Origin: a virus
Lineage: Duplodnaviria > Caudoviricetes
Reading direction: 5' to 3' (one strand)
Length of the DNA stretch: 64,000 bases
IMG/VR virus record: IMGVR_UViG_3300046522_000316
Location: 128,001-192,000 of that record
Shown here: positions 12,631-29,105 of the stretch, in pieces
Numbering within the stretch: the first letter of the stretch is position 1
Layout of the letters: every line of letters begins with the position of its first letter
The notes under the pieces: model-generated
What the model saw: only the letters and a program-made list of their open reading frames with translations
Databases searched by the model: none
Told to the model about the DNA's origin: nothing
Made by a program: the position numbers and the translations under genes

Positions 12631-13078
12631 ATACGGCCCCAGCCCAATTTTTACGGTCGTTGCTTCGGAGATTCCTAACTCGGGCAAACGACCAGACACA
12701 CCGAAACCAGAAATAAACGAAGTGGGCGAATCGGCATGCGTTACCGGGCTTTCCAGTCTGGCACAGCGCCTGACGCAGGATATTCTTGTGGCCCATGAGC
12801 GCGTGCATTACGGATTTCCAATGCCGCAATTTCTTTTGCTCGCCCATGAATCGGAATTCGATCATCCAGACTTGGCGATTGCACAGCAGCTGCACCAATA
12901 TGTGGAATTTCGGGATATCACAATCGGTTATCCGCTGTCGATCAATGCGTATTTGTATATCACTGATCCAGCGGCTTACGGATTGCCACGCGGCTTAACT
13001 GAGGAAGAGGTTCTGAATAGTTTTCTTCGGAATTCTGTGCGGATTACCTACATCGTCAAGAATACGGATTTAAAATAA
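12620..13078 (+). CDS. hypothetical protein
   Basis: ATG 12620 chosen within the 12572-13078 ORF; its stop overlaps the next ATG. Confidence 0.65.
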   Translation: MGCEYGPSPIFTVVASEIPNSGKRPDTPKPEINEVGESACVTGLSSLAQRLTQDILVAHERVHYGFPMPQFLLLAHESEFDHPDLAIAQQLHQYVEFRDITIGYPLSINAYLYITDPAAYGLPRGLTEEEVLNSFLRNSVRITYIVKNTDLK

Positions 13079-14403
13079 TGGCAAACTATCGCTACATGGG
13101 TGAGCGTGACCTCGAATACACGGACGCCAGCGACGAATATGATCTGCATTTTGTGCAAGGTGATTTGTTCACCATGTACCGCCACGGGCAGGTCTACATC
13201 GTTCAGCATTCCGACGCACCTGAAGTTATTTTCAAACTGAAACTGAAGCAGGGCAATGACCTGCACAACATGAGCGAAGAGCTTTTGTCGGTCGAAACCG
13301 ATCCGGACAATCCGCCGTACATGTTGTTCAAACCGTCGTTCGAAATGATGCCGTTGCTTTACGATTATTTCAACCGCACTTATTTCAACAACGAATGCCC
13401 GGTTGTGAAATTCCGCAAGACTACGAAAAGCACTGTGTGGGGAATGGCGCAGCTGGAATGGCTCGGTAAAAAACCGGTTTACACGTTCTTCGTGAATGAA
13501 AGCGCAATGATCGACCGCGTGCTGTTCTCGAATACCGTTCTGCACGAACAGATTCACCTTCGTAACTTCGCGAAGGGTTACAAGTTGATGGACATTGATC
13601 CAAGTTCGTCGAAGGATTATTTGCACGATGACCACGGCCCCCATTTCCAAGACGAAATGCGCCGCCTGAATGCGAAAGGCTTCCACATTCTGCTGGCCGC
13701 AACACACGAAGAATTCAAACGTGATGCAACGGAAGAATTCTACGCAATTGTTGCGCAGGAAACAGCGGGCGCTCGCGTCATGTCATGGAACGCGTGGTAC
13801 ACGGCGAAAGAACTTACCGCCGATGACGCCGAACGTCTGGCCGGGCAGCTGAAGGAAATCAACCCGCATGCGGAATACACGATTAAACTGATCAAGACAA
13901 AAGATCGGAACGTGACGCACGCGACCCACATCAAAGGAACGAAAACGTTTACCGATTCGACTTTGAAAAAGAAAATCCAAGGCGATATCGACCTGCGCAT
14001 GGCCGAGGTTTTGTACACGACCTATTTGCGTCCGTCGATTGCTGTGGAATTGCCTGATTACAAAGACGTGCCGGATCTGTACGCGTTGCCGCTGGATAAC
14101 TTCTACAAATCCATGCGTAGCTACACCGATGACCGAATGGTGTTGCGCGCAAAATGGATGAAGTTTCCGGGCAAGCTTTTGAGTTCCCAAATCGACAAGA
14201 AGTTCAGCACCTTGATTGGTCGCATGGGCCGGGACTCAATCCACGATGACGACGTGGTGAACATCCTGAACGATATCCGCGCAGCGTATGCGGATCGTTT
14301 TTCGTACCAACAATATGTGGACGCCATGCATGCGTTCATCAAGAAATATGATCGCAAAGGCCTGCTTGCAGAGTACGCCAAAATTATGCGACTGATTGCG
14401 TGA
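13078..14403 (+). CDS. SprT-like zinc metalloprotease
   Basis: LYDYFNRTYF...WGMA...TVLHEQIHL (HExxH)...DHGPHFQDEMRRLN is the SprT/Wss1-type signature. Confidence 0.85.
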   Translation: MANYRYMGERDLEYTDASDEYDLHFVQGDLFTMYRHGQVYIVQHSDAPEVIFKLKLKQGNDLHNMSEELLSVETDPDNPPYMLFKPSFEMMPLLYDYFNRTYFNNECPVVKFRKTTKSTVWGMAQLEWLGKKPVYTFFVNESAMIDRVLFSNTVLHEQIHLRNFAKGYKLMDIDPSSSKDYLHDDHGPHFQDEMRRLNAKGFHILLAATHEEFKRDATEEFYAIVAQETAGARVMSWNAWYTAKELTADDAERLAGQLKEINPHAEYTIKLIKTKDRNVTHATHIKGTKTFTDSTLKKKIQGDIDLRMAEVLYTTYLRPSIAVELPDYKDVPDLYALPLDNFYKSMRSYTDDRMVLRAKWMKFPGKLLSSQIDKKFSTLIGRMGRDSIHDDDVVNILNDIRAAYADRFSYQQYVDAMHAFIKKYDRKGLLAEYAKIMRLIA

Positions 14404-14419
14404 CAAAAGGGGATTGACG

Positions 14420-14995
14420 GTGGCTTACACAAAGCGACGTAGAAGCAGCACGAAACAATCGCGTGCCAAAAAGGCATACGAAAAGAAAACAGCCCTTCCG
14501 GAAACAACAGTGAAAATGTCCCGCAGTGATATCACCAGCGCGCTTATGCAGGCGCTGACTTATTACTACGTGAAGAAAACCTGTTCGGTTCACAAAGAAG
14601 TGGGCGTGGTGCCATGGGGCCGGTCGCGACTTGATGCATTGGTTATCGACTATCCCGGCAATTTCCACGGGGTTGAAATCAAAAGCTGCTTGGCAGATTT
14701 CCGCGCTGATAAAAAATGGCGTGATTATTTGCCACACGTGAACAAGATGTATTTCTTGTTTGCACCGTCAATCACTCAATCGCGGTGCTATCCGGAAATT
14801 CGCGCAGAACTGAAAGCAGAGGGTGTGGGCATTCTGGTTCTGAGCGAAACCACCGGGCGTATTTCGTGCAGTCAGAAAGCGAAGCATCGGCCTGTCGCAA
14901 TCACTGCAAAATTTCGCATGTATCGCAAACTGGCTTGGCTCGCGGGTGACGCTAAGCACACCATTACCAGAACGCAGCGGGTGTTTTTGAAATGA
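14420..14995 (+). CDS. mmcB: MmcB-family PD-(D/E)xK nuclease
   Basis: RLDALVI...GVEIKSCLADFRADKKWRDYLPHVNKMYF matches the MmcB pattern EIKSS.ADF..D.KW..Y. GTG start at 14420 follows AAGGGGA; ATG 14396 is the alternative. Confidence 0.8.
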   Translation: MAYTKRRRSSTKQSRAKKAYEKKTALPETTVKMSRSDITSALMQALTYYYVKKTCSVHKEVGVVPWGRSRLDALVIDYPGNFHGVEIKSCLADFRADKKWRDYLPHVNKMYFLFAPSITQSRCYPEIRAELKAEGVGILVLSETTGRISCSQKAKHRPVAITAKFRMYRKLAWLAGDAKHTITRTQRVFLK

Positions 14996-15603
14996 TCGGG
15001 AAATTTATTGCACTGGAATCCATCGAAGCAGCCGGTAAAGGAACTGCCTCGATTTACGTTGGTGATCATGCAAAGAAACGCGGGTTGGAAATGATCTTTA
15101 CCCGTGAGCCGGGCGGCACTCCATTTGCTGAAGCGATCCGCACGCTAATGCTTGATAACGAAGGGAAAATTCCCGCGTTGTGTCAACCTTTCCTGTCGTA
15201 TGCTTCCCGCATTCAACATACCGAACATTTGATTCGTCCGGCGCTGGAACGTGGCGCGCACGTTTTCAGTGAACGTTATTACTGGTCAGCACTCGCTTAC
15301 CAAACGCGCACCTGTGATCAGACGTGGGCCATTCACGAAATGTGTTCGGAACATTTGATCAAACCTGATCTGACAATTCTGTTGGATCTGCCGCCAGAAG
15401 TCAGCTTCCAGCGTATGCACGAATCCCGCGTTGCAAAGGGAATCGCTCTCGATGAATTCGAGAAAAAACCTTTGTCTTATTTCGCTGAAGTGCGTGAGGC
15501 CTACCACAATCTGATTGATGATTCGTGGGTTGTGATCGACGCACAGCAACCCCTTGAAGAGGTGCAGCGCCAAGTATTGGCACTGATCGACCGAACGGTG
15601 TAA
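14992..15603 (+). CDS. tmk: thymidylate (dTMP) kinase
   Basis: FIALESIEAAGKGT P-loop, TREPGGTPFAEAIR, SERYYWSALAYQ, PDLTILLDLPPEV and IDAQQPLEEV. Confidence 0.92.
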   Translation: MIGKFIALESIEAAGKGTASIYVGDHAKKRGLEMIFTREPGGTPFAEAIRTLMLDNEGKIPALCQPFLSYASRIQHTEHLIRPALERGAHVFSERYYWSALAYQTRTCDQTWAIHEMCSEHLIKPDLTILLDLPPEVSFQRMHESRVAKGIALDEFEKKPLSYFAEVREAYHNLIDDSWVVIDAQQPLEEVQRQVLALIDRTV

Positions 15604-15605
15604 AA

Positions 15606-16031
15606 ATGAAAATGATGCTCGCATTAGCGGCCAGTGGTAAAAAGTATTTGTCGGGCGGGCTGATGATTCGGTTGGCCCGGAACTACCCGGATATTCGCGA
15701 CCTCGGTAATCGCCTGCTGCGTCTGCCCATTATCCCGCGTGGGAATTTCGTTCCCAAATTGCCTAAAGGTGATGACCACCTGATCAAGTTTGCAGAACAG
15801 AATAAGTTCTCGCTTTATTACGGTTATCGCGTGTACAAAAACGCAGAAGGCAAAGACCAAATGGAATCTTTGCTGATGTGCGTGGACGACAAGGGCCGCG
15901 TAGTTGAAACCGAAGAAAGCCGGTTGGATAACACGTCGAGTTATGTAGGAATGCGTATCCCGACTGACGATATCAAAAGCCGTCGCTACGCCAACAAATT
16001 CAACCGGATGGATTACCTAAAGGCCCAATGA
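15606..16031 (+). CDS. hypothetical protein with N-terminal tag (MKMMLALAAS)
   Basis: First member of the tagged gene run. Confidence 0.8.
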   Translation: MKMMLALAASGKKYLSGGLMIRLARNYPDIRDLGNRLLRLPIIPRGNFVPKLPKGDDHLIKFAEQNKFSLYYGYRVYKNAEGKDQMESLLMCVDDKGRVVETEESRLDNTSSYVGMRIPTDDIKSRRYANKFNRMDYLKAQ

Positions 16032-17713
16032 TGGAAATGACAATTGCAGCCTCAGTATCGCCGCCCGGTGCAGCGGATGCGTTCATTAAACTTTTGATCG
16101 CGATTTACAAGGCGCCCGAATTCGACTACGGTACGAATTTTCAAACGAAATTGAAGAAGTGGAACGAACAAGCGCAGCCGTTCCTTGAGCAGTACGCGAT
16201 CAAGCGCACCTTTGCCAAAACTTTGTCGATGTTGGTCAATGGCGAAGACGTATCGAACGAGAAATATTCGATCATCGTGAAGGGCTGTTTCGACTCCCTG
16301 AAAAAGAAAAAGAAATCGTTCGATAAAGACAAAGGTTTGTCCAAGCTGCAATTGAGTTTCCTGAATGACGTGCGTCTGGCCTACAACGGATCGTCGGGTG
16401 CGGGTAATCGCATCATGCAGAACGTTGGCTATTTCAAAGATTCGCATATCAGCAAAATGTTTTTGCACGAAGGCGAACACGTTGACACTTCGGTGCAGCA
16501 ATCGCTTTATGATCGCCTCGAAGAACACGTGAAAACTCACGGCAAAGTGAAGGGCCACGTGATGCCGAATACCACGCTTGAGAAATGGCGTGATAAGGCG
16601 AAAGAAGTGGGCGGCAACCTGACGGAACACCAAGACTATTTGGACATGCGCCGCCAGCGTAAAGCCATCGCAGATAAAGCGATTGCGAATATAGTTCGGG
16701 CATCCGGTGAACACATTGTGGACGTGGACGTAATCCGCGAACAAATGAACGGCGTGCAGCACGATATTCCTGATTGGTTCGTCGGCAAGATCGACGACAA
16801 AGGGAATTACTTCACCACTGACGGTTTGCAACTGCTGAATAAACCGATTGGTGAAGGTTCGATGAACCCGAATTACAAAGCGGGATCGACCGTTTACTAC
16901 TGCCAGTACAAAGCACCATTTGCTGCAAATCTTTCGAACGTCTACACGATTGCAGCCCGTACCGAAGGCCGCGTGCAGTCTTTTAACGTCGTGCAAAACA
17001 TGCTGCCCGATGTGACGAAGTATGTGAAAAAATGGTTGCCTGATTTGGCTAAGGGGCCGGGATCGTTGCGTGGTGTTGCTGCTGCCGTTTGTGAGACGAT
17101 TTACCAGACAAGTGCGCGCATCGGTTCGACCCGTGGCAACACAGCCGGGGAAACGACCTACGGCATTTCTACGCTGCTGCGCAAACACATTCTGTTCAAT
17201 GATCAACGTGCGATTTTCAAGTACATCGGCAAGAAAGGCGGTGCGCAGAAACACGTGATCAAATTCGAAGATCAGCGGACGCAAATGCTGCATGCTGCAC
17301 TTGACGAATTCCTGTACGAGAAAAAGCCAGCGGAATATGTTTTCACTTTCCGTGGCAAACCTCTATCGAACAGCCAAGTGAACGGCTACCTGCGTGACCT
17401 CGGATTTCCTGAAGGTTTCAGCATTCACAAATTCCGTAAGCTGCGCGGTACAGCGATGGCGAAATTGCTGATGGACAAATGCCCGTTTGGTGCCCGCGCC
17501 CGCGATGCTGACGTAAACAAATGGATCGAAACGCAGTGTTTGAAAATCGGTAAGGAACTCGGTCATTTGGCCGGGGAGAAAGTGACGGCCACCACGGCAA
17601 TCGCGAACTATATCGACCCTTCGGTATTCCTGCCGGTCTACGAAAAAACGAACACGCGTCCAAACTCCAAAATCCAAAAAGCGATTGACCTCGCTACGAA
17701 GAGTGCAGAATAA
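16028..17713 (+). CDS. DNA topoisomerase IB with N-terminal tag and long N-terminal extension
   Basis: Catalytic pentad in order: R (SARIG), K (YIGKKG), R (HKFRK), H (LGH), Y (ANYIDP). TYGISTLLRKHI matches poxviral/bacterial Topo IB. Confidence 0.9.
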   Translation: MMEMTIAASVSPPGAADAFIKLLIAIYKAPEFDYGTNFQTKLKKWNEQAQPFLEQYAIKRTFAKTLSMLVNGEDVSNEKYSIIVKGCFDSLKKKKKSFDKDKGLSKLQLSFLNDVRLAYNGSSGAGNRIMQNVGYFKDSHISKMFLHEGEHVDTSVQQSLYDRLEEHVKTHGKVKGHVMPNTTLEKWRDKAKEVGGNLTEHQDYLDMRRQRKAIADKAIANIVRASGEHIVDVDVIREQMNGVQHDIPDWFVGKIDDKGNYFTTDGLQLLNKPIGEGSMNPNYKAGSTVYYCQYKAPFAANLSNVYTIAARTEGRVQSFNVVQNMLPDVTKYVKKWLPDLAKGPGSLRGVAAAVCETIYQTSARIGSTRGNTAGETTYGISTLLRKHILFNDQRAIFKYIGKKGGAQKHVIKFEDQRTQMLHAALDEFLYEKKPAEYVFTFRGKPLSNSQVNGYLRDLGFPEGFSIHKFRKLRGTAMAKLLMDKCPFGARARDADVNKWIETQCLKIGKELGHLAGEKVTATTAIANYIDPSVFLPVYEKTNTRPNSKIQKAIDLATKSAE

Positions 17714-17715
17714 AT

Positions 17716-18000
17716 ATGGAAATGATGCTGGCAGTTGCCAACGAAAATCGCAACCCTGTTTCGGTAGACAAATTGCCGAAAGGTTCCAAGGTCACTCATT
17801 TTGTGCTGTATCACGAAGGCACTTTTAACATCTTGGGGCGTGGTCGTGCCGCTACCGCCAAACAGGCGACAAAACAAATGGATCGCCTTATGTCGCTGGG
17901 GATGAAAGCGGATCTTGCGCTTTACGCAGAAGACGGCGACCGCACGGTTTTGCTGCGCGAAACGTATATCCTGAAACGTACCGGCCCTGAGAAGGTTTAA
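17716..18000 (+). CDS. hypothetical tagged protein (MEMMLAVAN)
   Basis: 94-aa ORF carrying the tag. Confidence 0.8.
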   Translation: MEMMLAVANENRNPVSVDKLPKGSKVTHFVLYHEGTFNILGRGRAATAKQATKQMDRLMSLGMKADLALYAEDGDRTVLLRETYILKRTGPEKV

Positions 18001-18003
18001 CAA

Positions 18004-18375
18004 ATGGAATTGCTGATCGCTGTTGCGTCGAACAAAATCGACAAAGGGAATTTGATTCCCGCCGATACGAAAATCCAAGCGTATTCGATCCACGACAACC
18101 ATTCGGAAAAATATCTGAACGCTGGTTCGCATGCGCCGTGCAGTGCGGCCCAAGCGCTGAAGAAAATCAAAGAATTCACCAAACAATACGGCGGCGTCAC
18201 CGTGCTGTTCGACCTGCTGGAACCTAGCGGGCGTACCATCCGCGCCAAGCGTTCTTATTCGATGAATTATGGCGATTTGATTCAGCCGTATCGCGGTACG
18301 GAAACCATCCTGCAAGATGTTATGGCACCAACGCCGAAACCTACGAATCAGGCAAAGAAAGTTCGTCACATTTAA
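18004..18375 (+). CDS. hypothetical tagged protein (MELLIAVAS)
   Basis: 123-aa ORF carrying the tag. Confidence 0.8.
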   Translation: MELLIAVASNKIDKGNLIPADTKIQAYSIHDNHSEKYLNAGSHAPCSAAQALKKIKEFTKQYGGVTVLFDLLEPSGRTIRAKRSYSMNYGDLIQPYRGTETILQDVMAPTPKPTNQAKKVRHI

Positions 18376-18394
18376 TAAAAAGAGCGTGGGACAA

Positions 18395-18700
18395 ATGGAC
18401 GTATACGAAAGCGGTGTTTGTATTGGTCAGCGCGGCGAACAAGGCCCGGAAGGCCCACGCGGCCCCTGTGGCCCTACTTGCAAGGGGCCTGAGTGCGGCT
18501 GTGGCAGTGTGTGCGGGCCTATTGGTCAGCATGGCTTTCCGGGTGCAGATTGGAACGATGGAAAGGGAGGTGATCGTGGAATTCCCGGCCCCGACTACGG
18601 CGGCGATAACGCTGGCCCATCGAAGAAAGAAGCTCACGCTATGCCGTGGTATGTCGCACACGTAATGCGGCAAACGCGCCGTCAACAACGGGTGAATTAA
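18395..18700 (+). CDS. small Cys-rich collagen-like protein (untagged)
   Basis: [17 protein letters not shown]...CGPIGQHGFPG Gly-X-Y runs. Start ATG 18395. Confidence 0.65.
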   Translation: MDVYESGVCIGQRGEQGPEGPRGPCGPTCKGPECGCGSVCGPIGQHGFPGADWNDGKGGDRGIPGPDYGGDNAGPSKKEAHAMPWYVAHVMRQTRRQQRVN

Positions 18701-19129
18701 ATGGAAGTGAATATCGCATTAGGTGCGAGTCCGAATCAGGTTTATTTGTTCTTCGATAAACTGCGTCTGCGCGGATTCGAATTGAGTGAATCCAAATACG
18801 GGCACCCGAAAGCCATCCGCAAATATTACGACTTGTCCGGGCATTACAAATGTTCGGTAAATGTCGGCACCTACAAATTCGGTGAAGGTGCAGGCTGGTA
18901 CGAATACACAGTGTGGGTTGAATCTGCTGTGAAAGACGCAGTGACCGGCGAGCCTGTGGCAGCGGAAGAACTGAAAAACGGTTATTCGTTTACCACGCAG
19001 GACAACGAACGCATTACGCTTTTCACTTATTTCCTCGACTCGATTCTGACGCAGCCTGAATGCGTTGGCCTACCAACTCCGCTTGCCGTGGATGAAGTCC
19101 GCGAAGGCGAATATCGGATTAAATTTTAA
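18701..19129 (+). CDS. hypothetical tagged protein (MEVNIALGAS)
   Basis: 142-aa ORF carrying the tag. Confidence 0.8.
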   Translation: MEVNIALGASPNQVYLFFDKLRLRGFELSESKYGHPKAIRKYYDLSGHYKCSVNVGTYKFGEGAGWYEYTVWVESAVKDAVTGEPVAAEELKNGYSFTTQDNERITLFTYFLDSILTQPECVGLPTPLAVDEVREGEYRIKF

Positions 19130-19395
19130 TGGAAATTCAAATGGCTTTGGCCGCGAATAAAAAGCTGGTTCCAACCGGCACCACCATGGCAGGTTTCGAG
19201 ATTCAAAAAGACGGTAGCCCCATGATGACCATCGGCGGCAAATCCACTTGGCCGAGGATCGAAACGCAATTGGCACAGCACATTAAACTGGTCGGTGACG
19301 TGCATCTGGTGATCTGGATTCGCGACAAAAACGGCGACATGACCACGACCAAAACCCTTTACGGCCTCGACGGCGATCAAGTGGTGGAAAAATAA
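19129..19395 (+). CDS. hypothetical tagged protein (MEIQMALAAN)
   Basis: 88-aa ORF carrying the tag. Confidence 0.8.
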   Translation: MEIQMALAANKKLVPTGTTMAGFEIQKDGSPMMTIGGKSTWPRIETQLAQHIKLVGDVHLVIWIRDKNGDMTTTKTLYGLDGDQVVEK

Positions 19396-19827
19396 ATGAA
19401 AATGGAAATCGCAACCGCTGCTGAACCGACAATGCTGCCGAGCCGCTACGCCATTGGCGAGCCTGTGTTTTTTCACCCGGCAATTCACGACTTCACGCCG
19501 GAACAAATCCAGAAAAACGCACTGAAAGCCAAAATCATGGGCGTGCGTTTCACCAAAGAAAAAGTGCTGTACGAATTGGCGTTGGATACCGCACTTGATC
19601 CGGGGCCTGCCGAATATTACGAAGCAATTCCACTGGCTGACGTGGATTCGTATTTCGTGCTGAACGCAGCCGATGCAATGGACGGCGACCGTTTGCTGGC
19701 CGACGTTTCCTACATGGCGACTGGCTCCAGCAAAACCCGTACACCACAAGAAATCCGCAAGTTCGCTCAATTCTTTTTGGCGGTTGCGGCTGACCTTCCC
19801 GAACTGCGTAAAGAACAGGGCAAATAA
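19396..19827 (+). CDS. hypothetical tagged protein (MKMEIATAAE)
   Basis: 143-aa ORF carrying a tag variant. Confidence 0.8.
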   Translation: MKMEIATAAEPTMLPSRYAIGEPVFFHPAIHDFTPEQIQKNALKAKIMGVRFTKEKVLYELALDTALDPGPAEYYEAIPLADVDSYFVLNAADAMDGDRLLADVSYMATGSSKTRTPQEIRKFAQFFLAVAADLPELRKEQGK

Positions 19828-19829
19828 AA

Positions 19830-20219
19830 ATGGAAGTGATGATCGCCCTCGGGGCCTCAATTAAAGTCAGTGACCGGGGCGAACATTTCGGTAAAGAATT
19901 TCGTTCCGAACACGGTTACATCTGCGTGAAAACAGGCGGGCAATTCTCGCCATGCAAACACAGCGTAACCGATTACGTGGTTAACGAAGAATCACGCGGA
20001 CAGGGCCACGGTGATTTCCTGCTGAAGGGAATTGTGCGCACGTATAAATCGGATATCGGCGGGCAGGTTAGCAGCATTGCCAGCCTGCACGTGTTCTACA
20101 AAAACGGGTTCCGACCAGCACTCAAACTCGATGCAACTTTGGAAGAGACGAAAAAGCTTTTCAAAGATGAATGGGGTAGCCTGCTGATGGTTTATAAACC
20201 GGCGAAGGATTTCACTTAA
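19830..20219 (+). CDS. GNAT acetyltransferase, tagged (MEVMIALGAS)
   Basis: Motif A YVVNEESRGQGHGDFLL and motif B ASLHVFYKNGF. Confidence 0.8.
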   Translation: MEVMIALGASIKVSDRGEHFGKEFRSEHGYICVKTGGQFSPCKHSVTDYVVNEESRGQGHGDFLLKGIVRTYKSDIGGQVSSIASLHVFYKNGFRPALKLDATLEETKKLFKDEWGSLLMVYKPAKDFT

Positions 20220-21136
20220 TGGAAATGCAATTGGCGTTGGCCGGGAGTTCCGTACTCTATCATTTGATCCCGATGGAATACGCAATTGAAGCAATGCAAA
20301 AAGACCGCTTCCGGCTGATGCCAACCAACGAAGGCGTCGAGTCTGAATTCGGGGATGCTCAATATTTCCTGAGCCTTGCACGTTCGAAACTTTCCGATTA
20401 TTTCATCAAAGAAGCTGGCTCGACGCACGTCATTTTCGTGCTGGACGGCCAGAAGCTGAACGCGAATTACCAAATCAAAGCGGTCGATTATTGGGCGAGC
20501 CAAAAGCACGTTTCCAACGACGAAAAAGAAGACCGCCTGTTCGCAAACAAAATGTACATTCCGTGCATTCGATACATCAAAGAAATCCATTTCATGAAAG
20601 AAAGCGGCAAGTACAAGGAAAACGAATCGTTAACCTTGGCGCTGCTGGCAAAACGCAACAAGATCCAGCTGTTCCAGTACGACGATCAAAAGGCATTTGT
20701 GCGGCTTGATAAACGCAAGACAATCAAGCTGGAAGTTTCCAACATTAAGAAAAAGAAATTCGGTAAGAACGAATGGACGCCCGGCCCGGACTACACGCTA
20801 GAAGCGTGGTATGTCGCATCGCAAATCGTGTTCAAGGGTGACAAGCCGCATTACACGCAATTCATGGCCGGGGCCAAGCACAAAGAAGAACGCAAGGCCC
20901 GCGAACGTGTGGCCCGCGATATTCGAAACCTGATTAAATATCGGGATGTAGAAGCGGGGCCTGTGCGTGACTTCAATCAGTTGGCGGGGTTCCTCAAAGA
21001 TCCGCACGACGCCGAATTTCTGGAAAAGATCAAGCGTGTGAAACGTCGCCTGAAGACCGACACCAAAGGATTTCTTGATTACGTGCGCAAGCGCTGGATG
21101 ACTCAAGAAGAAAAAGAAATGCACGGCTTGGAGTAA
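20219..21136 (+). CDS. probable ADP-ribosyltransferase-fold protein, tagged (MEMQLALAGS)
   Basis: LYH, FLSLARS and EKEDRL appear in the order and spacing of the ART triad (H/R, SxS, ExE). Confidence 0.55.
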   Translation: MEMQLALAGSSVLYHLIPMEYAIEAMQKDRFRLMPTNEGVESEFGDAQYFLSLARSKLSDYFIKEAGSTHVIFVLDGQKLNANYQIKAVDYWASQKHVSNDEKEDRLFANKMYIPCIRYIKEIHFMKESGKYKENESLTLALLAKRNKIQLFQYDDQKAFVRLDKRKTIKLEVSNIKKKKFGKNEWTPGPDYTLEAWYVASQIVFKGDKPHYTQFMAGAKHKEERKARERVARDIRNLIKYRDVEAGPVRDFNQLAGFLKDPHDAEFLEKIKRVKRRLKTDTKGFLDYVRKRWMTQEEKEMHGLE

Positions 21137-21140
21137 ACGC

Positions 21141-22952
21141 ATGGAAATGCAATTGGCTGTGGCCGCAGTACGACTTAGTGTTGCGCGCCCATTCGTAAAG
21201 GGCTGGAATAAAAACGGAATCGGTGTGAAAGCCGTCCGTAAATTCCTGCCTAAAAATAGCAAAGGTTATCGGCTGTATATGCCGATCAAGAAAACGAAGG
21301 CCGACCGCGTAGTGGTGCCACATGCGGTGTTCCACGCAATCCACGAAGCCGGTTACAGCATCGAAGATTACATCAACGGAATCGCGGTGGCTCCGGACGG
21401 TAAACGTCGCGTGCGTATCGGCAAGATTTTGCGCGATGCAGAAGCCATTAAAGAATTCGCAAACGATCCGCAACGTTCGGCCCACAAAGACGAATACACC
21501 TGCGTGATTTCTGCGCATCCTTACGATGTGATCGGAATGTCTACCGGGCGCCGTTGGGATAAGACGACCTGCATGCGCTTAGCAACGCCTGAGAACAAAG
21601 GTGACGCAGGCGAGAAGGCCGTAGAATTCATGCCGGGCACCGTTGCGGAAGGCACGTTGGTTGCCTACGTGATCAGCCCCAAAGATAAAAACATCAACAA
21701 GCCTCACGCTCGCCTGTTGATCAAACCGTACAAGAAAGCCGACGATCAATCTTTCGTTTATTTCAAAGTCGAAACCGCTGTTTACGGCCAGCCTATTCCC
21801 GGTTTTAAACGCACTGTTGAAAACTGGTTGAAGCGTGTGAACAAAGGCGCGCAGGCCGGTATCTACAAGCTGCACAACAGCGTGCATATCGACGGCTCTG
21901 ATGATAAGCGCACGGCGATCATCGCGGATTACGAAACGATCAAAGATAAAGACAATTTCATTCTGAAAAATATGTACCCGGCTGGCGGGCCGAAAGTCTG
22001 GCTGACCGCCGACAAACGTTGGTTGCCCGACATGCTGCGCATCACCACCGACATTCACAATCTGGAAGAAATTCTGAATGCTGCGCGTGGCCTCAACATG
22101 GGCGCGAAAAAGATCGGTGCGATTTACGATCAGGTTATTCCTGCTGACGATCTGCGCAATTACGATCTGGCCGAATTCCTGATGGGCACGCATGCACAGG
22201 AATTGTTCGAAACCAGTAAACACCTTGGTGATGCTGCGCACGAACAATTCGCGTGGAACGAAGACGAAGAACCTACCAACGCCGGTCATGCAATGAAATA
22301 CGGCCTGTACGATTCGCGCTGGCTGGCGAACGTTGACGATATCAGCACCGACCTTTTGCGGCAGGCTGCGCAGAAGTTTATTTATGGCGCTTACCACTGG
22401 ACGAAAGAACTGCAAGATTCTCGGACGCCGGGCGCTGAAAAGATTCGTCTGTATTTCGCATTTGTTTCGCACGGACTTCTGGCCGACACTGGCTGGCTCA
22501 CTCCGCGTGTGAAAATCCAGAACCTGAAAGACTTCGTGAAGAAATCGAAAATTCCTGCCGGTTGGGATGAAAAGATTGTGGACATTGTGCGGTCGTTTGA
22601 CTGGCACCCGAATTTCCGCAACTCGACCTCGAATAATCTTCAGGGTGAAGCCTGCGTGCTGAATGCGGCGCCGGACTGGGCAGCTGTGTTCCCTGAATGG
22701 ATTCCCGAAGCGCGTAAATACCTGAGCGAAAAAGCGGTTGGTGTTCTGGCTAAAATGGCGAAGCACAACAAAGCAATTCGCGAACAGTTGGTCTACTGGG
22801 CCTACGCGCAAAACCGCGATGCACTTTCCAACGGATACCACTGGTTCACCACACGTAAAAACGTGCGTGATTTTATTCACCGCGTAGCTGAATCCAAAGG
22901 CGATGGCGAAGCCGAAGTATTCGCCCAACGCATTCTGTCCCTACAGAGTTAA
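21141..22952 (+). CDS. tagged paralogue 1 of the HPYD-GMST family (603 aa)
   Basis: Shares a ~250-aa N-terminal domain with the next two genes (VISAHPYDVIGMSTGRRWD..CMR, EGTLVAY, YGQPIPG). Confidence 0.85.
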   Translation: MEMQLAVAAVRLSVARPFVKGWNKNGIGVKAVRKFLPKNSKGYRLYMPIKKTKADRVVVPHAVFHAIHEAGYSIEDYINGIAVAPDGKRRVRIGKILRDAEAIKEFANDPQRSAHKDEYTCVISAHPYDVIGMSTGRRWDKTTCMRLATPENKGDAGEKAVEFMPGTVAEGTLVAYVISPKDKNINKPHARLLIKPYKKADDQSFVYFKVETAVYGQPIPGFKRTVENWLKRVNKGAQAGIYKLHNSVHIDGSDDKRTAIIADYETIKDKDNFILKNMYPAGGPKVWLTADKRWLPDMLRITTDIHNLEEILNAARGLNMGAKKIGAIYDQVIPADDLRNYDLAEFLMGTHAQELFETSKHLGDAAHEQFAWNEDEEPTNAGHAMKYGLYDSRWLANVDDISTDLLRQAAQKFIYGAYHWTKELQDSRTPGAEKIRLYFAFVSHGLLADTGWLTPRVKIQNLKDFVKKSKIPAGWDEKIVDIVRSFDWHPNFRNSTSNNLQGEACVLNAAPDWAAVFPEWIPEARKYLSEKAVGVLAKMAKHNKAIREQLVYWAYAQNRDALSNGYHWFTTRKNVRDFIHRVAESKGDGEAEVFAQRILSLQS

Positions 22953-22956
22953 ACAA

Positions 22957-25716
22957 ATGAAATTAGAAATGGCATTGGCCGCCGTGTCCATGAAAACGGC
23001 ACTGAAATATCGCCGCAATTGGGATCGCAATGCACCGATTGTGAAGCTGTTGCAATCCATGATGCCGTTCGGGCCGGGCAAGAAAGGGTATCGCCTGTAT
23101 TTCGATATCGGTGTGAACCATAAAGCGCACTTCACGGTTCCCCCGGCTGTGCGTTCGGCCCTGCAAAAAGCAGGCTATGCACCAACCGATTATCTGGCGA
23201 AGAAATGCGTCAAGATCGGTGACAAAGAACAGAAGAACGTTTTCAATATCGGCAAAGTAATTGCGAAAGATCCACACGCAAAAGCGGCGTTCGATAACGA
23301 TCCACAATTGCAGAACACCAAACAGGGTGCGTTGCAGGTCGTGATCAGCTGTCACCCGTATGACGTAATCGGTATGAGTACCGGGCGTGCGTGGGACAAA
23401 ATGTCGTGCATGCGCCTTGCTGATGGCGAACACCGTCTCGATCCCGGTTCGAACTCGCATTACGTGCGCAACGACGTTTCGGAAGGCACCTTGGTTGCCT
23501 ACGTTGTCGGCGCCGATGATTCGAATATTCAGCAACCGAAAGCACGCTGCTTGCTGAAGCCTTTCTACAACGAAAAAGGCGAAGTGCTTTATCGTCGTGA
23601 AACCCGCATTTACGGCAACCCGGTTCCCGGTTTCGATATTATTCTTTCGCGTTTTCTGCGTAAGATTAATGCGCACCTTCCGGAAGGCACGTTCCAAATG
23701 GCTAAGGGCCTTTACAACGACGGCATGGGCGATTACACGTACCACAAACCGAGCCATGACGATAACCTGTCGATTGAAGACGTGACGCTTGATCCTGCGC
23801 ACGCCGTGCAATACGTGCAGCAGCAAGTGAAAGCCATGGAAGATCATGCTTTCCGTGATGATCATATCGACAATATCATCACCTTCCTGAACAACGATGA
23901 AATTCAAAGTCGTTTGAAAGAAACGCAAATTGATGAAATCGTCGAAACCCTCAAAGGCGTGAAGGCCGCAGTTAACGGCATTCATTTGCTGGCCTACAAA
24001 GACCAGCCTTTGAGTACGGTGCTGGCCGAAGTCGGTCGCCGCATTGGTTCGTTCGAGAAAACGAAAGGCTTCACGAAAGAAATTCTGGCTGGTCTGGATG
24101 ACGACCGTGTTCACAACCTTTCGCACGGTGGGGGCAATCCCGTAATCGAAGCGCTTAGCCGCGTGGAAGATTTGAACGATTATGAACTGCGTGATAATTC
24201 CCGCATTTTCAAAATGATCCTCACTGGCAAAACTCCAGTGCCTTCGAAAGAAGAATTGGAAAACTTGCCGAATTGCGCACGCATTTTGAATACCGCTGCG
24301 CACGCTGCCCGCCACATGACGATGCTCAATGATGATTCGATGCAGAAAGGTGCATACGCAATTATCGACCTTGGAATTGATGTGGAAAACGCAATCTGGC
24401 TCGGCCCGGATGCAGCTGACATGATGTACGCAACTGGCGGCATTAATCTTTTCCTCGGTTATGTGATGGATAACGTCGGCAAACTGAGTTCGGATGCGTT
24501 GTGGGCCGCTGACCCTGCCGTAACCGCATTGGCGCTCGCGAATCGCCGGGTGTTCCGCTTCCTTGATAAACAGGAAGATCGCCAAATTGCATTCATGATG
24601 GATCATGTGAAAATGGAACAGGTTAAATATCTGATCCTGAATCCGAGTAAAGAACAACTTTTCAAAGACAACAAAGCGGCGCTCATTAAATACCTCGACG
24701 ATAACGAGGAAGTTATTCCGTCGATCCTCGGCAATGGTTGGGAACCGCAGTACGTGAAAAACTTGGCGAATCTCCATTTGCCAGCCGTAATGCATTTGAC
24801 CGAAAGCGATGGCATTTTCACTTCGGGACTAGCCGATACGATGCAGGGGATTATCCCGGCACTTATGGCATGGGACGGCCCGAAACTGGAACCGCTGACC
24901 ACCGATATCGAAAACGCATTGCAGATTATTGTGCAGGCCGGGAACCTTCTGGATAAACCGTTGCATTTGGAACGGAAAATCGACGAAGAACAATTCGAAA
25001 TTCGCGATATCACGGATGTTTCCGACAACTACGTGCAACGCGCTGGCGCCAATCGCTACACCCGCATTAAATCGTTCCCTGAATTGCTGTATAAACTGGA
25101 TTTCAACGGCGAACGTGCGGACATTACCCATTCGACCGAACTCATGGAACATTTGGGCGGCGATGCATTCGGTTGGGTTCCTACCGAGAAGCTTCCGGGC
25201 GAAGTTCGCGGCATGCTGAAACTGGTTCGTGAAATGGATTTAGATCCTGCAATTGATGCGCTCTACAGCCTGATCAACGCCACGCGTTTGCTTCCATTGG
25301 AAGAGGTGGATGCGGGCGTTGAACGACGCATGAATGATCGTGAAATTTTCATGCCCGACGATGACGTATTGGACGAAGACGCTTACGAAGAGGCGGATGC
25401 CGCCTACAATGAAATTCGTCAATCAATTGAAGATGAAATCATTGAGAACAATTACAAAACCCTTCGCCTCAATCGCAAGCTGTTGGAAGCGTTGGAAAAA
25501 GTGAAAGACTTCGTGGGCTACGACGAAGACGTTGATTATTTCGATGACGATGCACCACTCGCCACATTCGCCACCGATTTGACGAACGTTTCCGAAGACG
25601 ATTACGCTGACAATGAAGACCGCGTGCGTGATTTGCGGGCTGAGTTGAAAAGCGAATGCGAAAGCCGTCCGAACGAACAGCAGGAAATGGAAGACGACGC
25701 TGGTTTCAGCGAATAA
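22957..25716 (+). CDS. tagged paralogue 2 of the HPYD-GMST family (919 aa, acidic tail)
   Basis: Start ATG 22957 (MKLEMALAAV). VISCHPYDVIGMSTGRAWDKMSCMR, EGTLVAY, YGNPVPG. Confidence 0.85.
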   Translation: MKLEMALAAVSMKTALKYRRNWDRNAPIVKLLQSMMPFGPGKKGYRLYFDIGVNHKAHFTVPPAVRSALQKAGYAPTDYLAKKCVKIGDKEQKNVFNIGKVIAKDPHAKAAFDNDPQLQNTKQGALQVVISCHPYDVIGMSTGRAWDKMSCMRLADGEHRLDPGSNSHYVRNDVSEGTLVAYVVGADDSNIQQPKARCLLKPFYNEKGEVLYRRETRIYGNPVPGFDIILSRFLRKINAHLPEGTFQMAKGLYNDGMGDYTYHKPSHDDNLSIEDVTLDPAHAVQYVQQQVKAMEDHAFRDDHIDNIITFLNNDEIQSRLKETQIDEIVETLKGVKAAVNGIHLLAYKDQPLSTVLAEVGRRIGSFEKTKGFTKEILAGLDDDRVHNLSHGGGNPVIEALSRVEDLNDYELRDNSRIFKMILTGKTPVPSKEELENLPNCARILNTAAHAARHMTMLNDDSMQKGAYAIIDLGIDVENAIWLGPDAADMMYATGGINLFLGYVMDNVGKLSSDALWAADPAVTALALANRRVFRFLDKQEDRQIAFMMDHVKMEQVKYLILNPSKEQLFKDNKAALIKYLDDNEEVIPSILGNGWEPQYVKNLANLHLPAVMHLTESDGIFTSGLADTMQGIIPALMAWDGPKLEPLTTDIENALQIIVQAGNLLDKPLHLERKIDEEQFEIRDITDVSDNYVQRAGANRYTRIKSFPELLYKLDFNGERADITHSTELMEHLGGDAFGWVPTEKLPGEVRGMLKLVREMDLDPAIDALYSLINATRLLPLEEVDAGVERRMNDREIFMPDDDVLDEDAYEEADAAYNEIRQSIEDEIIENNYKTLRLNRKLLEALEKVKDFVGYDEDVDYFDDDAPLATFATDLTNVSEDDYADNEDRVRDLRAELKSECESRPNEQQEMEDDAGFSE

Positions 25717-25741
25717 AAACAGTAATTTTATAGTATGTTAC

Positions 25742-25777
25742 GCCGGGAAGGTTTAGGCTGACCCGGCTTTCTTTTTT
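25742..25777 (+). terminator. possible terminator between paralogues 2 and 3
   Basis: GCCGGG-N14-CCCGGC followed by TTTCTTTTTT. Confidence 0.55.
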
Positions 25778-25791
25778 ATGGATCAAAAAAC

Positions 25792-28455
25792 ATGCTAATT
25801 GACTTGGCTTTCCTCGGTACAGCAGCGGTTTCAATGCGTAGTGCTTTGAAATACCGCCGCAATTGGGATAAGAACGGGCCGACCGTTCAACTGCTTCGCA
25901 AATTCATGCCGCGTGGTTCCAAAGGGTTTCGCGTTTATGTTCCCATTGGTCACGCACAAGTTACGAACAACGTGGTCATTCCGTTGCCAGTTCGTTTGGC
26001 CGTTCGCAAAGCCGGTTTCCGCATCACTGATTACCGGGCGAAACGCTGCGTTAAGCTGAACGATAAAGATCAGAAAAACGTATTCAATATCGGTAAGGTT
26101 ATTTCGAAAGATTCCGTGGCTAAGGCCGCATTCGACAATGACCCGCAATTGCAGAACAGTTCTACCTCCGAATTCACAATGGTTATTTCCTGTCACCCAT
26201 ACGACATTATCGGTATGTCCACTGGCCGTGATTGGGATGAAACCAGCTGCATGCGCATGGGCGATTATCGCGACGATTACAGCGATGGTTCCAACGTCAG
26301 TTATTTGAAACACGACGTGGCCGAAGGAACGTTGGTTGTTTACGCCGTGCGCTCTGATGATCCAAATATCACGAAACCGTTGGGTCGTTGCCTGTTGAAA
26401 CCTTTCCTGCGTGATGACGGATCGGGTTCTATTTTCTACCGTCGTGAAACCGATGTTTATGGCAACCCGGTTCCCGGTCTGGCTGAAACGTTGGCGCGCT
26501 TCCTGCGCAAATTGAATGCCGGTGTTCCTGCCGGGATTTATAAGCTCAACGAAAAGCTTTACAACGACGGCCTTGTACCGCGTGCAGAGAACGATGGTTC
26601 TTCCGAAGGGCCAACCGTTGACTGGGCAGTGGTTGACGATCAGCAGAAGCTGAAAGAACGCCCGGAAATGTTTGCAGATTTTGCGAACTATTTGATGAAA
26701 CGAAACGCGGAAGGAATCACCGACACCAGTGTGGTGATCAACATCCTGATCGACCATGCAAAAACGATCAACGCACGTTTCGTTAAACCAGCGGCCCGCG
26801 TACTTGCCAATCCGAAATTCGCTGCTGCATTCCTTGAACATGCTGCGTCTTCTTTCTCGGATTCCGATTCGGATAGCATCGCTAAATTCATGGCATCGCC
26901 TGAGTTCCGCCGTGCGCTGTTGCTGGCTGAACGCGAAGCAGAAGAGGCGCCGGATACCTACCGTTCGCTTTCGTTCCTGAGTCCGAAAAACGCACATCGT
27001 TATTTCGTGCGTGAAGTAAAAGACAATCCGGACAATTACAACTATGCGGCAATCAGCTACGCGTGCGGCACCGTTGACCTGTTGCCGGACGATGTTGAAT
27101 CCATTCCAGAACTGCACAAACTCGTATTTAAATATGCGGAATTGATTCGCGAAAGTTCTGTGTTTGGTTCGACTGCCTATCAGGAATCGGCACACCGCGT
27201 GCTGTCTACGGTTGAGCCGTACAAAGGCGATTACACGGAAGCGGAAATTCAGGATATCGCGGTAACGTTGGCCGGTGACAAAAAGACTTATCGCGCAATC
27301 ATCGCGTGGTTTATCAATTCCACCAGCGCAAACGACATTGTGACCTCTGATCTGCTGGCCGGTTTCATTCGCGAAGCCCGTTTCCGTTGGGCGCTGCGTG
27401 ATCGTCGGATGCGTAAACGAATTCTCGGCCTGAAAAACATTTCTGCAACAGCGCAAGAAATGGTTGTGCGGTCTATCGACGAACTGATGGACAACCACGA
27501 CGCACAGGATGCAGCCAGCATTCAACGTGACCTGATTGCCCATATGCGCCGTGGTGGTTTCGACTGCCTGACTGCGAAGATGTATATGCGCATTTTGGGT
27601 AACGCACCGCAGCTGTTTAAATCCATCTGGTATTCGCAGGAAAACGAACTCAATGCCAATCTGGTCGAAGAGCTTCTGACCCGGCCTTCGATGTTGAGCA
27701 ACTGCGTTCGTGAGAATCCAGATGCTGTGCCGCAAAACGAATTCCAGAAGAATATTTTCCGTGTGGCGAAAACGTTCGTGGTTGTAATCGGGGAACCAAC
27801 CGAGGAAGACAAAAAGATCGGCGTTGTCGATCCGGACGTAATGAAAATTCTGGTTAAATTCGGTGGTGGAATGCGTGCCCTTGGGCATTACATTATCAAC
27901 CTCGCGGATTACCCGGACTTGCTGAACGGTTCGACCTACGTTGGCGCCGGTATTTTCCCGCTGGATTTGATCGGTGAAGACAACGGCCACAAGTTCCTTG
28001 AATCGCTGCGAGAAAAAGATATCGACGCAACGCAAACCCTGTTGAAAGCTGTAGCGCACGATTTCGCGCAAATGGGTTTGTACGCGGGCGCAGCTACCCG
28101 GCAGAATCGCGTTCTCAGTAATGCCGGTGCCCCTAGCGGTATTGCAACGATGGCGAAATCCCCGCCAGAATTCGCGGTCGCGGCCCAAGGGCGTTACGTT
28201 GCGGCAATTCAGAAGGTGAACAGTTTTATCGAAAACTTCCCGGTAAACGGGACTATCGAAGACTGGGAAAAACTTCTGCCTCTGATGGATATGGAACATC
28301 TGCCAGCCTTCAACGAAATGGTGGACGGCATGCTGGATAATCAGCGGCAAGTTCAACAGACCGCGCAGATGTTTGCGATGTTTGCCCAAGGCGAAACGAA
28401 AGAGGCATTGAAGGCCGCGCTTCCGCCTGACTGGCTCACGATAAAGGATTTGTAA
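25792..28455 (+). CDS. tagged paralogue 3 of the HPYD-GMST family (887 aa)
   Basis: MLIDLAFLGTAAVSMRSALKYRRNW; VISCHPYDIIGMSTGRDWDETSCMR, EGTLVVY, YGNPVPG. Confidence 0.85.
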   Translation: MLIDLAFLGTAAVSMRSALKYRRNWDKNGPTVQLLRKFMPRGSKGFRVYVPIGHAQVTNNVVIPLPVRLAVRKAGFRITDYRAKRCVKLNDKDQKNVFNIGKVISKDSVAKAAFDNDPQLQNSSTSEFTMVISCHPYDIIGMSTGRDWDETSCMRMGDYRDDYSDGSNVSYLKHDVAEGTLVVYAVRSDDPNITKPLGRCLLKPFLRDDGSGSIFYRRETDVYGNPVPGLAETLARFLRKLNAGVPAGIYKLNEKLYNDGLVPRAENDGSSEGPTVDWAVVDDQQKLKERPEMFADFANYLMKRNAEGITDTSVVINILIDHAKTINARFVKPAARVLANPKFAAAFLEHAASSFSDSDSDSIAKFMASPEFRRALLLAEREAEEAPDTYRSLSFLSPKNAHRYFVREVKDNPDNYNYAAISYACGTVDLLPDDVESIPELHKLVFKYAELIRESSVFGSTAYQESAHRVLSTVEPYKGDYTEAEIQDIAVTLAGDKKTYRAIIAWFINSTSANDIVTSDLLAGFIREARFRWALRDRRMRKRILGLKNISATAQEMVVRSIDELMDNHDAQDAASIQRDLIAHMRRGGFDCLTAKMYMRILGNAPQLFKSIWYSQENELNANLVEELLTRPSMLSNCVRENPDAVPQNEFQKNIFRVAKTFVVVIGEPTEEDKKIGVVDPDVMKILVKFGGGMRALGHYIINLADYPDLLNGSTYVGAGIFPLDLIGEDNGHKFLESLREKDIDATQTLLKAVAHDFAQMGLYAGAATRQNRVLSNAGAPSGIATMAKSPPEFAVAAQGRYVAAIQKVNSFIENFPVNGTIEDWEKLLPLMDMEHLPAFNEMVDGMLDNQRQVQQTAQMFAMFAQGETKEALKAALPPDWLTIKDL

Positions 28456-28881
28456 ATGGAACTTTTTATTGCACTAGCTGCCGAGGATGTGAGCGCACGG
28501 ATTTCTGACGGTGTGCGTTCCATTCTGAAAAAGTCGTACAGTTCGTTGTTTGCCAATGTGTTCGTGCGGGTTTTCGATATTGATGATCGGCACAAATCTG
28601 ATATCAAAATCGTTCGTGAAATGGCGAAAGAATTTGCACCGGTTTGGGTTACTGTCGAGAACGCACAGCACGATATCGTGACGTTTGTTTTCGCGGTGCC
28701 TACGCTGGCGCCTGTGCTGCACATTCCGAATCCGCCGCTGGCCTACGTGATCCACAACGAAAAAGTCGAGCAATTCAAACTCGAACCACGCGTTGTACAG
28801 GTTCGCGGTGCTGACTACGCAATCGCTGCTGCTGTCGCACGCCGGGCACCGAACTTTATCGAAATTGGAGTGAGCAAATAA
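28456..28881 (+). CDS. hypothetical tagged protein (MELFIALAAE)
   Basis: 141-aa ORF carrying the tag. Confidence 0.8.
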   Translation: MELFIALAAEDVSARISDGVRSILKKSYSSLFANVFVRVFDIDDRHKSDIKIVREMAKEFAPVWVTVENAQHDIVTFVFAVPTLAPVLHIPNPPLAYVIHNEKVEQFKLEPRVVQVRGADYAIAAAVARRAPNFIEIGVSK

Positions 28882-29105
28882 TGGAAATGATCCTCTCGCT
28901 TGCGCGGGCTGGATCGGCGGAACGGTGGGATGCAATTCCAGAAGTACGGTTCGACCGTGCGAAGGAAGGGCACTCACTGAATGCGTCCGGCAAACTCACA
29001 AAAAAGCGCCGCAGAAAACGCCTGAAAAGCGGACTGATCGACACGCCTCTAAAGGGCGCAGAGAAACGGCAAATGGATATTCAGGACACGGTTAGATGCC
29101 CGTGA
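28881..29105 (+). CDS. small basic tagged protein (MEMILSLARA)
   Basis: 74-aa ORF with a tag variant and a KKRRRKRLK stretch. Confidence 0.7.
   Translation: MEMILSLARAGSAERWDAIPEVRFDRAKEGHSLNASGKLTKKRRRKRLKSGLIDTPLKGAEKRQMDIQDTVRCP

Follow-up and report, generated by a model that had tools for sequence, protein, structure and literature searches.

A leader-tagged jumbo phage protein with a predicted ADP-ribosyltransferase fold, a candidate injected modifier of host macromolecules

We analysed a stretch of 64,000 nucleotides (hereafter the window; positions 128,001 to 192,000 of the IMG/VR virus record IMGVR_UViG_3300046522_000316, Duplodnaviria; Caudoviricetes), and in particular the gene at 20219-21136 on the + strand. 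According to its predicted structure, the encoded protein almost certainly has an ADP-ribosyltransferase (ART) fold over residues ~10-165. The window is part of a jumbo phage akin to Pseudomonas phage Lu11 (280 kb) and HRDY3, to which its conserved genes are ~77% identical in nucleotides, and near-identical DNA is present in rhizosphere and soil metagenomes of several studies. The open reading frame (ORF) of 305 amino acids that the original prediction had proposed was recovered with the same limits, from an ATG at 20219 to a TAA at 21134-21136. Its start overlaps by one base (TAATG at 20217-20221) the stop of an upstream GNAT-like gene which, like the ART gene itself, begins with a short N-terminal leader or tag. 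The ART gene is real and under strong purifying selection, because its ratio of nonsynonymous to synonymous substitution rates (dN/dS) is 0.057 against a copy with 90.7% nucleotide identity. The Lu11 orthologue is Lu11_0206, annotated, as are all the other phage homologues seen, as "hypothetical protein". The features of the gene are as follows.

20205..20209, + strand: ribosome-binding site AAGGA, 9 nt before the ATG, read from the sequence
20219..20245, + strand: N-terminal leader (tag), residues 1-9 (MEMQLALAG), from a census of leaders in the window and in Lu11; modelled as disordered
20246..20713, + strand: predicted ART-fold catalytic domain, residues ~10-165, from the model, VIA-align and Foldseek
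20255..20263, + strand: strand-1 motif L-Y-H, residues 13-15, where H15 is the presumed nicotinamide adenine dinucleotide (NAD)-binding His, from the alignment
20366..20386, + strand: F-L-S-L-A-R-S, residues 50-56, at the end of strand 2, with S52 and R55 invariant or near-invariant
20486..20521, + strand: D-Y-W after strand 4, then a variable loop of low confidence (~93-101), from the alignment and the model
20522..20539, + strand: E-K-E-D-R-L, residues 102-107, at the start of strand 5, where E102-x-E104 is the presumed catalytic pair
20714..20785, + strand: Lys-rich linker, residues 166-189, poorly ordered (predicted local distance difference test, pLDDT, 61-71)
20786..21136, + strand: C-terminal all-alpha domain, residues 190-305 and stop codon, with seven helices when folded alone (model ma1978cf2e371, pLDDT 93.2)

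The AlphaFold2 model of the protein (m97a54ab7a259, from a 25-sequence alignment) reaches a pLDDT of 82.6, residues 1-8 being disordered (pLDDT <50). The predicted catalytic domain consists of seven strands (12-18, 49-54, 70-76, 85-90, 103-109, 120-126 and 150-154) with helices between them. We compared it exhaustively with 48,161 PDB representatives using VIA-align. The best match was the NAD lobe (C-lobe) of yeast Tpt1 (Z 11.0, root-mean-square deviation 2.5 Å, 111/120 residues). Four DarT structures matched at Z 9.7, 9.3, 8.8 and 8.4 over 140-148 residues, mouse Tpt1 at Z 7.5, CC0527/DUF952 at Z 6.9 and KptA at Z 6.8. Between Z 4 and 5.5 were ART toxins: a Salmonella NAD-binding effector with ARF1 (7dn9), TreTu, AvrPphF, TreX, Scabin, pertussis toxin, PltA, CARDS, LT, CteC and diphtheria toxin. 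Nearly all the top matches in this comparison are thus ARTs, above background. Foldseek against the PDB placed DarT first (E 7e-4, probability 1.00), Tpt1 also having a probability of 1.00, and neighbours found in AFDB clusters, in the ESM Atlas and with a protein language model include DarT, DUF952, DUF2971, PARP, Arr and Tox-ART-HYD1. The split-sheet ART fold announced by the original prediction was therefore found in the model, in a domain that ends at residue ~165 and not at residue 130 as first proposed.

In this model, H15 lies on strand 1, S52 ends strand 2 with R55 right after it, and E102-x-E104 opens strand 5, behind a flexible loop of low confidence. We infer from this topology that the motifs occupy the canonical layout of an ART active site. 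We then measured how far these residues are conserved in the family. An exhaustive HMMER search, with sequences clustered at 50% identity, retrieved at least 1080 clusters at E<=1e-3 and 370 at E<=1e-10, and conservation was calculated on an alignment of the ART domain from 180 representatives among the retrieved sequences. The only columns conserved in at least 96% of them are H15 (His 96%, Arg 3%), S52 (100%), R55 (99%), G77 (97%), E102 (100%), E104 (100%), D105 (97%), R106 (100%) and Y154 (98%). Arg is the classical alternative to His at the strand-1 position of ARTs. The D-Y-W motif is also well conserved (D90 81%, Y91 93%, W92 86%). The loop that follows it varies in length among relatives, and the residue block 91-100 has a pLDDT of 53; residues ~93-101 may be an ARTT-like loop, a candidate substrate-recognition element. 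LYH, FLSLARS and EKEDRL form a signature of the whole family, far beyond chance, because they are near-invariant over 180 diverse relatives. The original prediction had located these three motifs in the order beta-1 H/R, central motif and catalytic E-x-E, and they do lie on strand 1, at the end of strand 2 and at the start of strand 5, at the most conserved positions of the family. Its central motif is also present, but not in the SxS (S-T-S) form that had been announced: it reads S-x-x-R-S, with S52 and R55 as the invariant residues.

The family is almost wholly metagenomic or from jumbo phages. Its phage members belong to Pseudomonas, Vibrio, Dickeya, Rhizobium, Alishewanella, Salicola and Microcystis phages, and a single one to an enterobacterial (Salmonella) phage. 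Three paralogues were found in the Lu11 block syntenic with the one described below and up to five places in Alishewanella phages are occupied by the family. The window holds no paralogue of the ART gene, and a profile scan of 185k species genomes found no relatives of the protein. Against Pfam, 70 relatives gave marginal matches only (Tox-ART-HYD1 in 6/70, best E 0.02; PARP in one, E 5.8e-4). The sole Pfam or PHROG match of the ART protein itself, Glyco_hydro_39_C at E 0.05, was taken as chance. Iyer et al. (PMC9503650) name N4-like, PART, ORF28, p0068-like, Alt/VIP2 and Mod among the frequent viral ART families; judged only by the descriptions given there, the phage distribution of the present family does not fit N4-like, PART, ORF28 or p0068-like. 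The ART family is large and unnamed, and would fall within the known theme of virion-delivered ARTs.

We compared the protein with the named ART systems that it most resembles. With Tpt1/KptA (PF01885; 7yw4, 7yw2, 9ld3), it shares the strand-1 signature L-Y-H-x-T, the Ser ending strand 2, a compact core and a short loop before strand 5. However, Tpt1 has an N-terminal RNA-binding lobe with catalytic residues, whereas the present domain starts at residue 10, and strand 5 carries E-x-E-D-R where the Tpt1 (H-H-h) clade, as outlined in PMC9503650, has a hydrophobic residue. PF01885 matches neither the protein nor its 70 relatives, nor anything in Lu11. The missing Pfam match, the missing RNA lobe and the E-x-E-D-R of strand 5 rule out a Tpt1/KptA identity. 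With DarT1/DarT2 (PF14487; 7omw, 7yk3, 8baq), it has in common the strand-1 His, an Arg near 51-55 and [Q/E]-x-E before strand 5. DarT2 uses R51, which contacts thymine, and Q158-x-E160 (PMC11281641). The motif is Q-x-E in DarT and an invariant E-x-E in the ART family, the ARTT loop counts 44 residues in DarT against ~10 here, and DarT is the toxin of a toxin-antitoxin pair with a DarG Macro partner, whereas our protein is leader-tagged with an extra helical domain. PF14487 gave no match at E<=1 for the protein or the 70 relatives. A DarT identity was rejected on these grounds (no PF14487 match, E-x-E and not Q-x-E, short loop), together with the absence of a Macro domain in Lu11.

The original prediction had drawn an analogy with T4 Alt, of which one part holds. 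Alt is an ART with a short N-terminal propeptide that is packaged in the head and ejected (PMC9026906, PMC5512222), and the same deployment, inferred from leader and gene context, is what we propose for the present protein; the E-x-E is also common to both. Membership of the Alt/VIP2 family, by contrast, is ruled out by the strand-1 His, the missing Pfam match and the nearness of the fold to Tpt1 and DarT. T4 Alt/VIP2 belongs to the R-S-E clade (Arg on strand 1, S-T-S, E-x-E), whereas the ART family has His in 96%, S-x-x-R-S and E-x-E. R-S-E toxins match the model at only Z <=5.5 (about 4-5), the T4 Alt leader is a different sequence, and the protein has no sequence similarity to Alt. ART-PolyVal (PF18760; "N4-like", Tox-ART-HYD2-related) owes its definition to polyvalent proteins for which injection is predicted (PMC5512222). 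It shares the genomic context, being encoded by tagged genes in the same block of relatives and having a known association with GNAT (PMC5512222), but its active site is H-Y-D (PMC5512222) against H / S-x-x-R / E-x-E here. PF18760 matched neither the protein nor the 70 relatives. Using hhalign, the family profile and the ART-PolyVal alignment gave a non-significant probability of 0.66%, in which LYHxT was paired with VYHGT. One protein of 1708 amino acids (P0043) carries ART-PolyVal and the present ART domain as separate domains. An ART-PolyVal identity was thus rejected, on the missing Pfam match, the different active site and the hhalign result.

We then turned to the leader and to the genes that share it. 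The two features concerned are the following.

15606..29105, + strand: block of tagged genes, a candidate arsenal of injected effectors, from the leader census; syntenic in Lu11 and in metagenomic relatives, with the same leaders
19830..20219, + strand: upstream tagged GNAT-like gene, 129 amino acids, translationally coupled; Acetyltransf_1 and Acetyltransf_7 at E ~0.008, below the Pfam cut-off

In this block, 14-15 consecutive ORFs of the + strand start with M-[EK]-[MVIL]-x-[ILM]-A-x-[AG]. In the complete Lu11 genome, 12 of the 15 matches to this pattern fall inside the syntenic 16-kb block. The N-terminal tag noticed at the outset is therefore real, being common to ~15 consecutive genes and block-specific in Lu11. 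A short N-terminal peptide shared with other proteins is also a feature of T4 internal proteins of the capsid-targeting sequence (CTS) type. In T4, 10 N-terminal residues suffice for head packaging, and Alt, an ART with a short propeptide, is itself packaged and ejected (PMC9026906). In 129 of 150 representatives of the family, the ART domain follows immediately after a short leader, the equivalent of Tyr14 being at median position 15, and in 18 it is inside larger proteins. Leaders of the T4-like capsid-targeting type (phi-x-E, e.g. MKSFKQFLSE|G) account for 72 of these 129, and ~25 are of the hydrophobic Ala/Ser type of the present protein. The T4-like type is the one borne by most of the distant members. 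Two unrelated leader types thus share the same junction before the ART domain. On a tree of the leader-less domains (FastTree, unrooted), leader type, assigned by rough regular-expression classes, changes at least 6 times, against 22.9 +/- 1.6 times for shuffled labels. Because of this difference, the leaders appear from their sequences to be mostly lineage-specific, and yet exchanged. From the leader and the gene block, we consider it somewhat probable that the ART protein is packaged in the head and injected. Far from the Lu11 block, the ORF at 41321-41683 (- strand) of this phage also begins with the leader pattern (MKVYLAIAAS…) and may be an extra tagged gene.

Behind the catalytic domain, the C-terminal helical domain has no recognisable fold (best PDB Z 3.8; Foldseek E>0.8; no AFDB match). 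Part of the family retains it, whereas it is replaced elsewhere in the family, and it is a candidate module for target recognition or retention in the head. The isoelectric point (pI) is 9.6 for this domain and 9.0 for the ART domain, with family medians of 9.6 for the C-terminal part and 9.4 for the ART domain. Larger proteins join the ART domain with LysM+SLT, GNAT, ASCH, DUF5661 or ART-PolyVal, a multidomain architecture which, by analogy, would be typical of injected polyvalent effectors. In three metagenomic relatives of 1126-1573 amino acids (P0098, P0105 and P0161), the internal ART domain is accompanied by a HIPIP-like Cys-rich domain. The N-terminus of these proteins shows an H-x-G-H motif like that of nucleotidyltransferases (CTP_transf_like, E only 0.03); fused to the ART, it may act as an NMNAT-like module supplying NAD.

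Taken together, these data make us lean towards an active ART that is packaged and injected, with its target class left open. That the protein is a catalytically active user of NAD+ is probable, judging from the modelled fold and from conservation. In this mechanism, the ART protein would be made together with the other leader-tagged products of the block, and the short hydrophobic leader (residues 1-9) would direct it into the assembling head. On infection, the enzyme would be delivered along with the genome and, before any expression of phage genes, would use host NAD+ for the mono-ADP-ribosylation of a macromolecule of the host. Fold and conservation suggest that H15 (strand 1) and S52/R55 (after strand 2) would hold NAD+, and that E104, aided by E102, would polarise the nicotinamide-ribose bond for transfer of ADP-ribose to the acceptor. 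The basic helical C-terminal domain (190-305) probably serves to pick the target or to keep the protein associated with the DNA in the head. The preferred acceptor would be an arginine of host proteins, because the two Glu of the E-x-E never vary, a trait of Arg-specific ARTs, with nucleic acid nearly as likely. E-x-E, and not Q-x-E, is the motif of arginine-specific ARTC enzymes (PMC11281641), and having a GNAT next to an ART is typical of polyvalent effectors that modify proteins (PMC5512222). A protein (arginine) target, which we put forward tentatively, is favoured by the invariant E-x-E, by the precedent of Alt and by the GNAT neighbours.

Several observations weigh against this scenario. 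Concerning the enzyme, ART-superfamily membership rests on the predicted structure and the motif positions: the protein has no meaningful Pfam or PHROG match, searches of the PDB with two sequence profiles of the family were empty, and the profile comparison with ART-PolyVal was not significant, as seen above. Concerning packaging, the leader lacks the Glu cut by T4- and phiKZ-type prohead proteases, and Lu11 gave no Peptidase_S77 or Peptidase_S78 match, the S77 result being uninformative since its control was also silent. No virion proteome covering a homologue was found, and the PaBG proteome paper mentions none (PMC7412058). A protein target is disfavoured by Tpt1 and DarT, the closest relatives in structure, whose substrates are nucleic acids, by the basic character of the whole family (median pI 9.4-9.6) and by the RNA-associated ASCH domain among the fusion partners.

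These last points lead to the alternative that survives best, namely the same injected ART with a nucleic-acid acceptor. This would be either a base of host single-stranded DNA (as for DarT) or an RNA/DNA phosphate or 2'-OH end (as for Tpt1, PARP10 and RhsP2); in a variant of this explanation, the ART would modify the phage's own incoming genome, masking it from restriction. We regard a nucleic-acid target as plausible, short of probable. Nucleic-acid ARTs make up the four best matches in structure (Tpt1 at Z 11.0, DarT at Z 8.4-9.7), R55 is at a sequence position like that of DarT2 R51 (PMC11281641), and baculovirus and iridovirus ORF28-type DarT-like proteins are among the viral fold matches, in addition to the basic character throughout the protein and the ASCH fusion already mentioned. 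However, DarT1, DarT2, pierisin, ScARP and Scabin have Q-x-E, whereas both Glu are 100% invariant here, and neither the 44-residue ARTT loop of DarT nor the N-terminal RNA lobe of Tpt1 is present. Moreover, no Macro or ARH hydrolase match that would protect the phage's own nucleic acid was found in Lu11, and a high pI is also usual in head-internal proteins. With E-x-E on one side and the nearness to Tpt1 and DarT on the other, the initial view that the target could be a protein, a nucleic acid or a defence component still stands. The active site may be described as chimeric, as it would combine a strand-1 His, as in PARP, DarT and Tpt1, with an invariant Arg-type E-x-E-D-R on strand 5. It is conceivable, if rather unlikely, that the present protein is the founding example of a clade with such a site that is delivered from the head and ADP-ribosylates nucleic acid (DNA or RNA of the host, or the phage's own genome) at injection. 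If true, this would reveal a first case of an injected nucleic-acid ART, and with it a new principle of host takeover or anti-restriction, in jumbo and T4-like phages.

A second alternative keeps an active ART and drops the packaging: the enzyme would act inside the infected cell, like T4 ModA/ModB, and the leader would serve translation efficiency, membrane or nucleoid targeting, or degradation control. The packaging points listed above would fit such a protein, namely the missing proteomic support, the leader without a recognisable protease site and the absence of a detected prohead protease of known family in Lu11 (S77 control silent). Nevertheless, two unrelated leaders stand at the exact same junction, one of them matching the T4 capsid-targeting pattern, the domain is also found inside polyvalent-type proteins with cell-wall lytic domains, and the tagged block-mates include ART-PolyVal. 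We consider an unpackaged ART to be a minority option, to be kept in mind.

A third alternative is an NAD+ glycohydrolase or phosphorylase (NADase) and not a transferase, which, at entry, would reduce host NAD+ or break down immune signals derived from NAD. Some ART-fold proteins are indeed NADases (Tne2, at Z 3.8 in the PDB comparison), and Iyer et al. 2022 mention that some phage ARTs may be (PMC9503650). But NADase ARTs are far down the match list, and the invariant E-x-E-D-R, the DYW/ARTT-like loop and the conserved extra domain look like acceptor recognition. In addition, NAD+ depletion would harm a 280-kb phage, a NAPRTase search having found no NadV-type salvage in Lu11, and an NADase is therefore improbable. 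Finally, a catalytically dead ART fold, serving only as a basic internal head or DNA-condensing protein, would agree with the basic character and the many paralogues, as in internal proteins, but is very improbable, the polar H, S, R, E, E, D and R being kept at active-site positions over >1000 clusters, which is unexpected for a purely structural role.

Packaged ARTs are known from T4 Alt and predicted for polyvalent proteins. The present family stands out by its size, by the absence of Pfam or PHROG matches and by a fold beside Tpt1 and DarT with, nevertheless, the arginine-type E-x-E. If active, it would be a major class of host-modifying enzymes of the first minute of infection, and genes that some phages have in up to five copies would acquire a function. 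In addition, the same catalytic domain behind two unrelated head-targeting leaders is a natural experiment, and the Lu11-type leader is a candidate new capsid-targeting sequence for protein delivery.

Finally, we looked at the other genes of the block and its surroundings. The slot upstream of the ART gene, GNAT-like in the window, is occupied in Lu11 by a tagged ART-PolyVal-like gene (159756-160208, L036; E 3.6e-5, below the cut-off) and in L003 by a tagged protein with a weak match to ATLF, a lethal-factor-like peptidase. This variation looks as if effectors were exchanged like cassettes while the leader stays constant. Clear ART-PolyVal genes that bear the leader are located within the block of two metagenomic relatives. 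We found no specific kinship of the window GNAT with the GNATs fused to an ART domain elsewhere, the link being at the superfamily level only.

At the beginning of the block, a tagged protein of 561 amino acids (16028-17713, + strand) has a type IB topoisomerase / tyrosine-recombinase catalytic domain (PF01028, E 5e-12; phrog_23460, E 8e-259) and is kept in Lu11 and HRDY3. A packaged topoisomerase IB would be unusual for a tailed phage. Just before the block, the stretch 13078-15603 (+ strand) encodes, without tags, a thymidylate kinase (E 1e-37), an MmcB-like nuclease (E 4e-11) and a metallopeptidase of the KMPT-N + SprT-like type (E 9e-10 and 1e-4). Downstream of the ART gene, at 21141-28455 (+ strand), three large tagged paralogues (603, ~919 and 887 amino acids) have a common N-terminal region (…LKYRRNWD…/…VKGWNKNG…) and no Pfam or PHROG match; equivalents were found in Lu11 and L004. 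Two antisense ORFs lie opposite these paralogues, at 21579-22928 (- strand, 449 amino acids) and 22963-24795 (- strand, 610 amino acids), with no support as genes; they are probably a by-product of codon usage in a genome of 50.5% GC. Inside the block, a small untagged ORF at 18317-18700 (+ strand) contains collagen-like G-x-y repeats and has a Lu11 counterpart, MDIYENGVCIGHADEPGERGPAGVAG….

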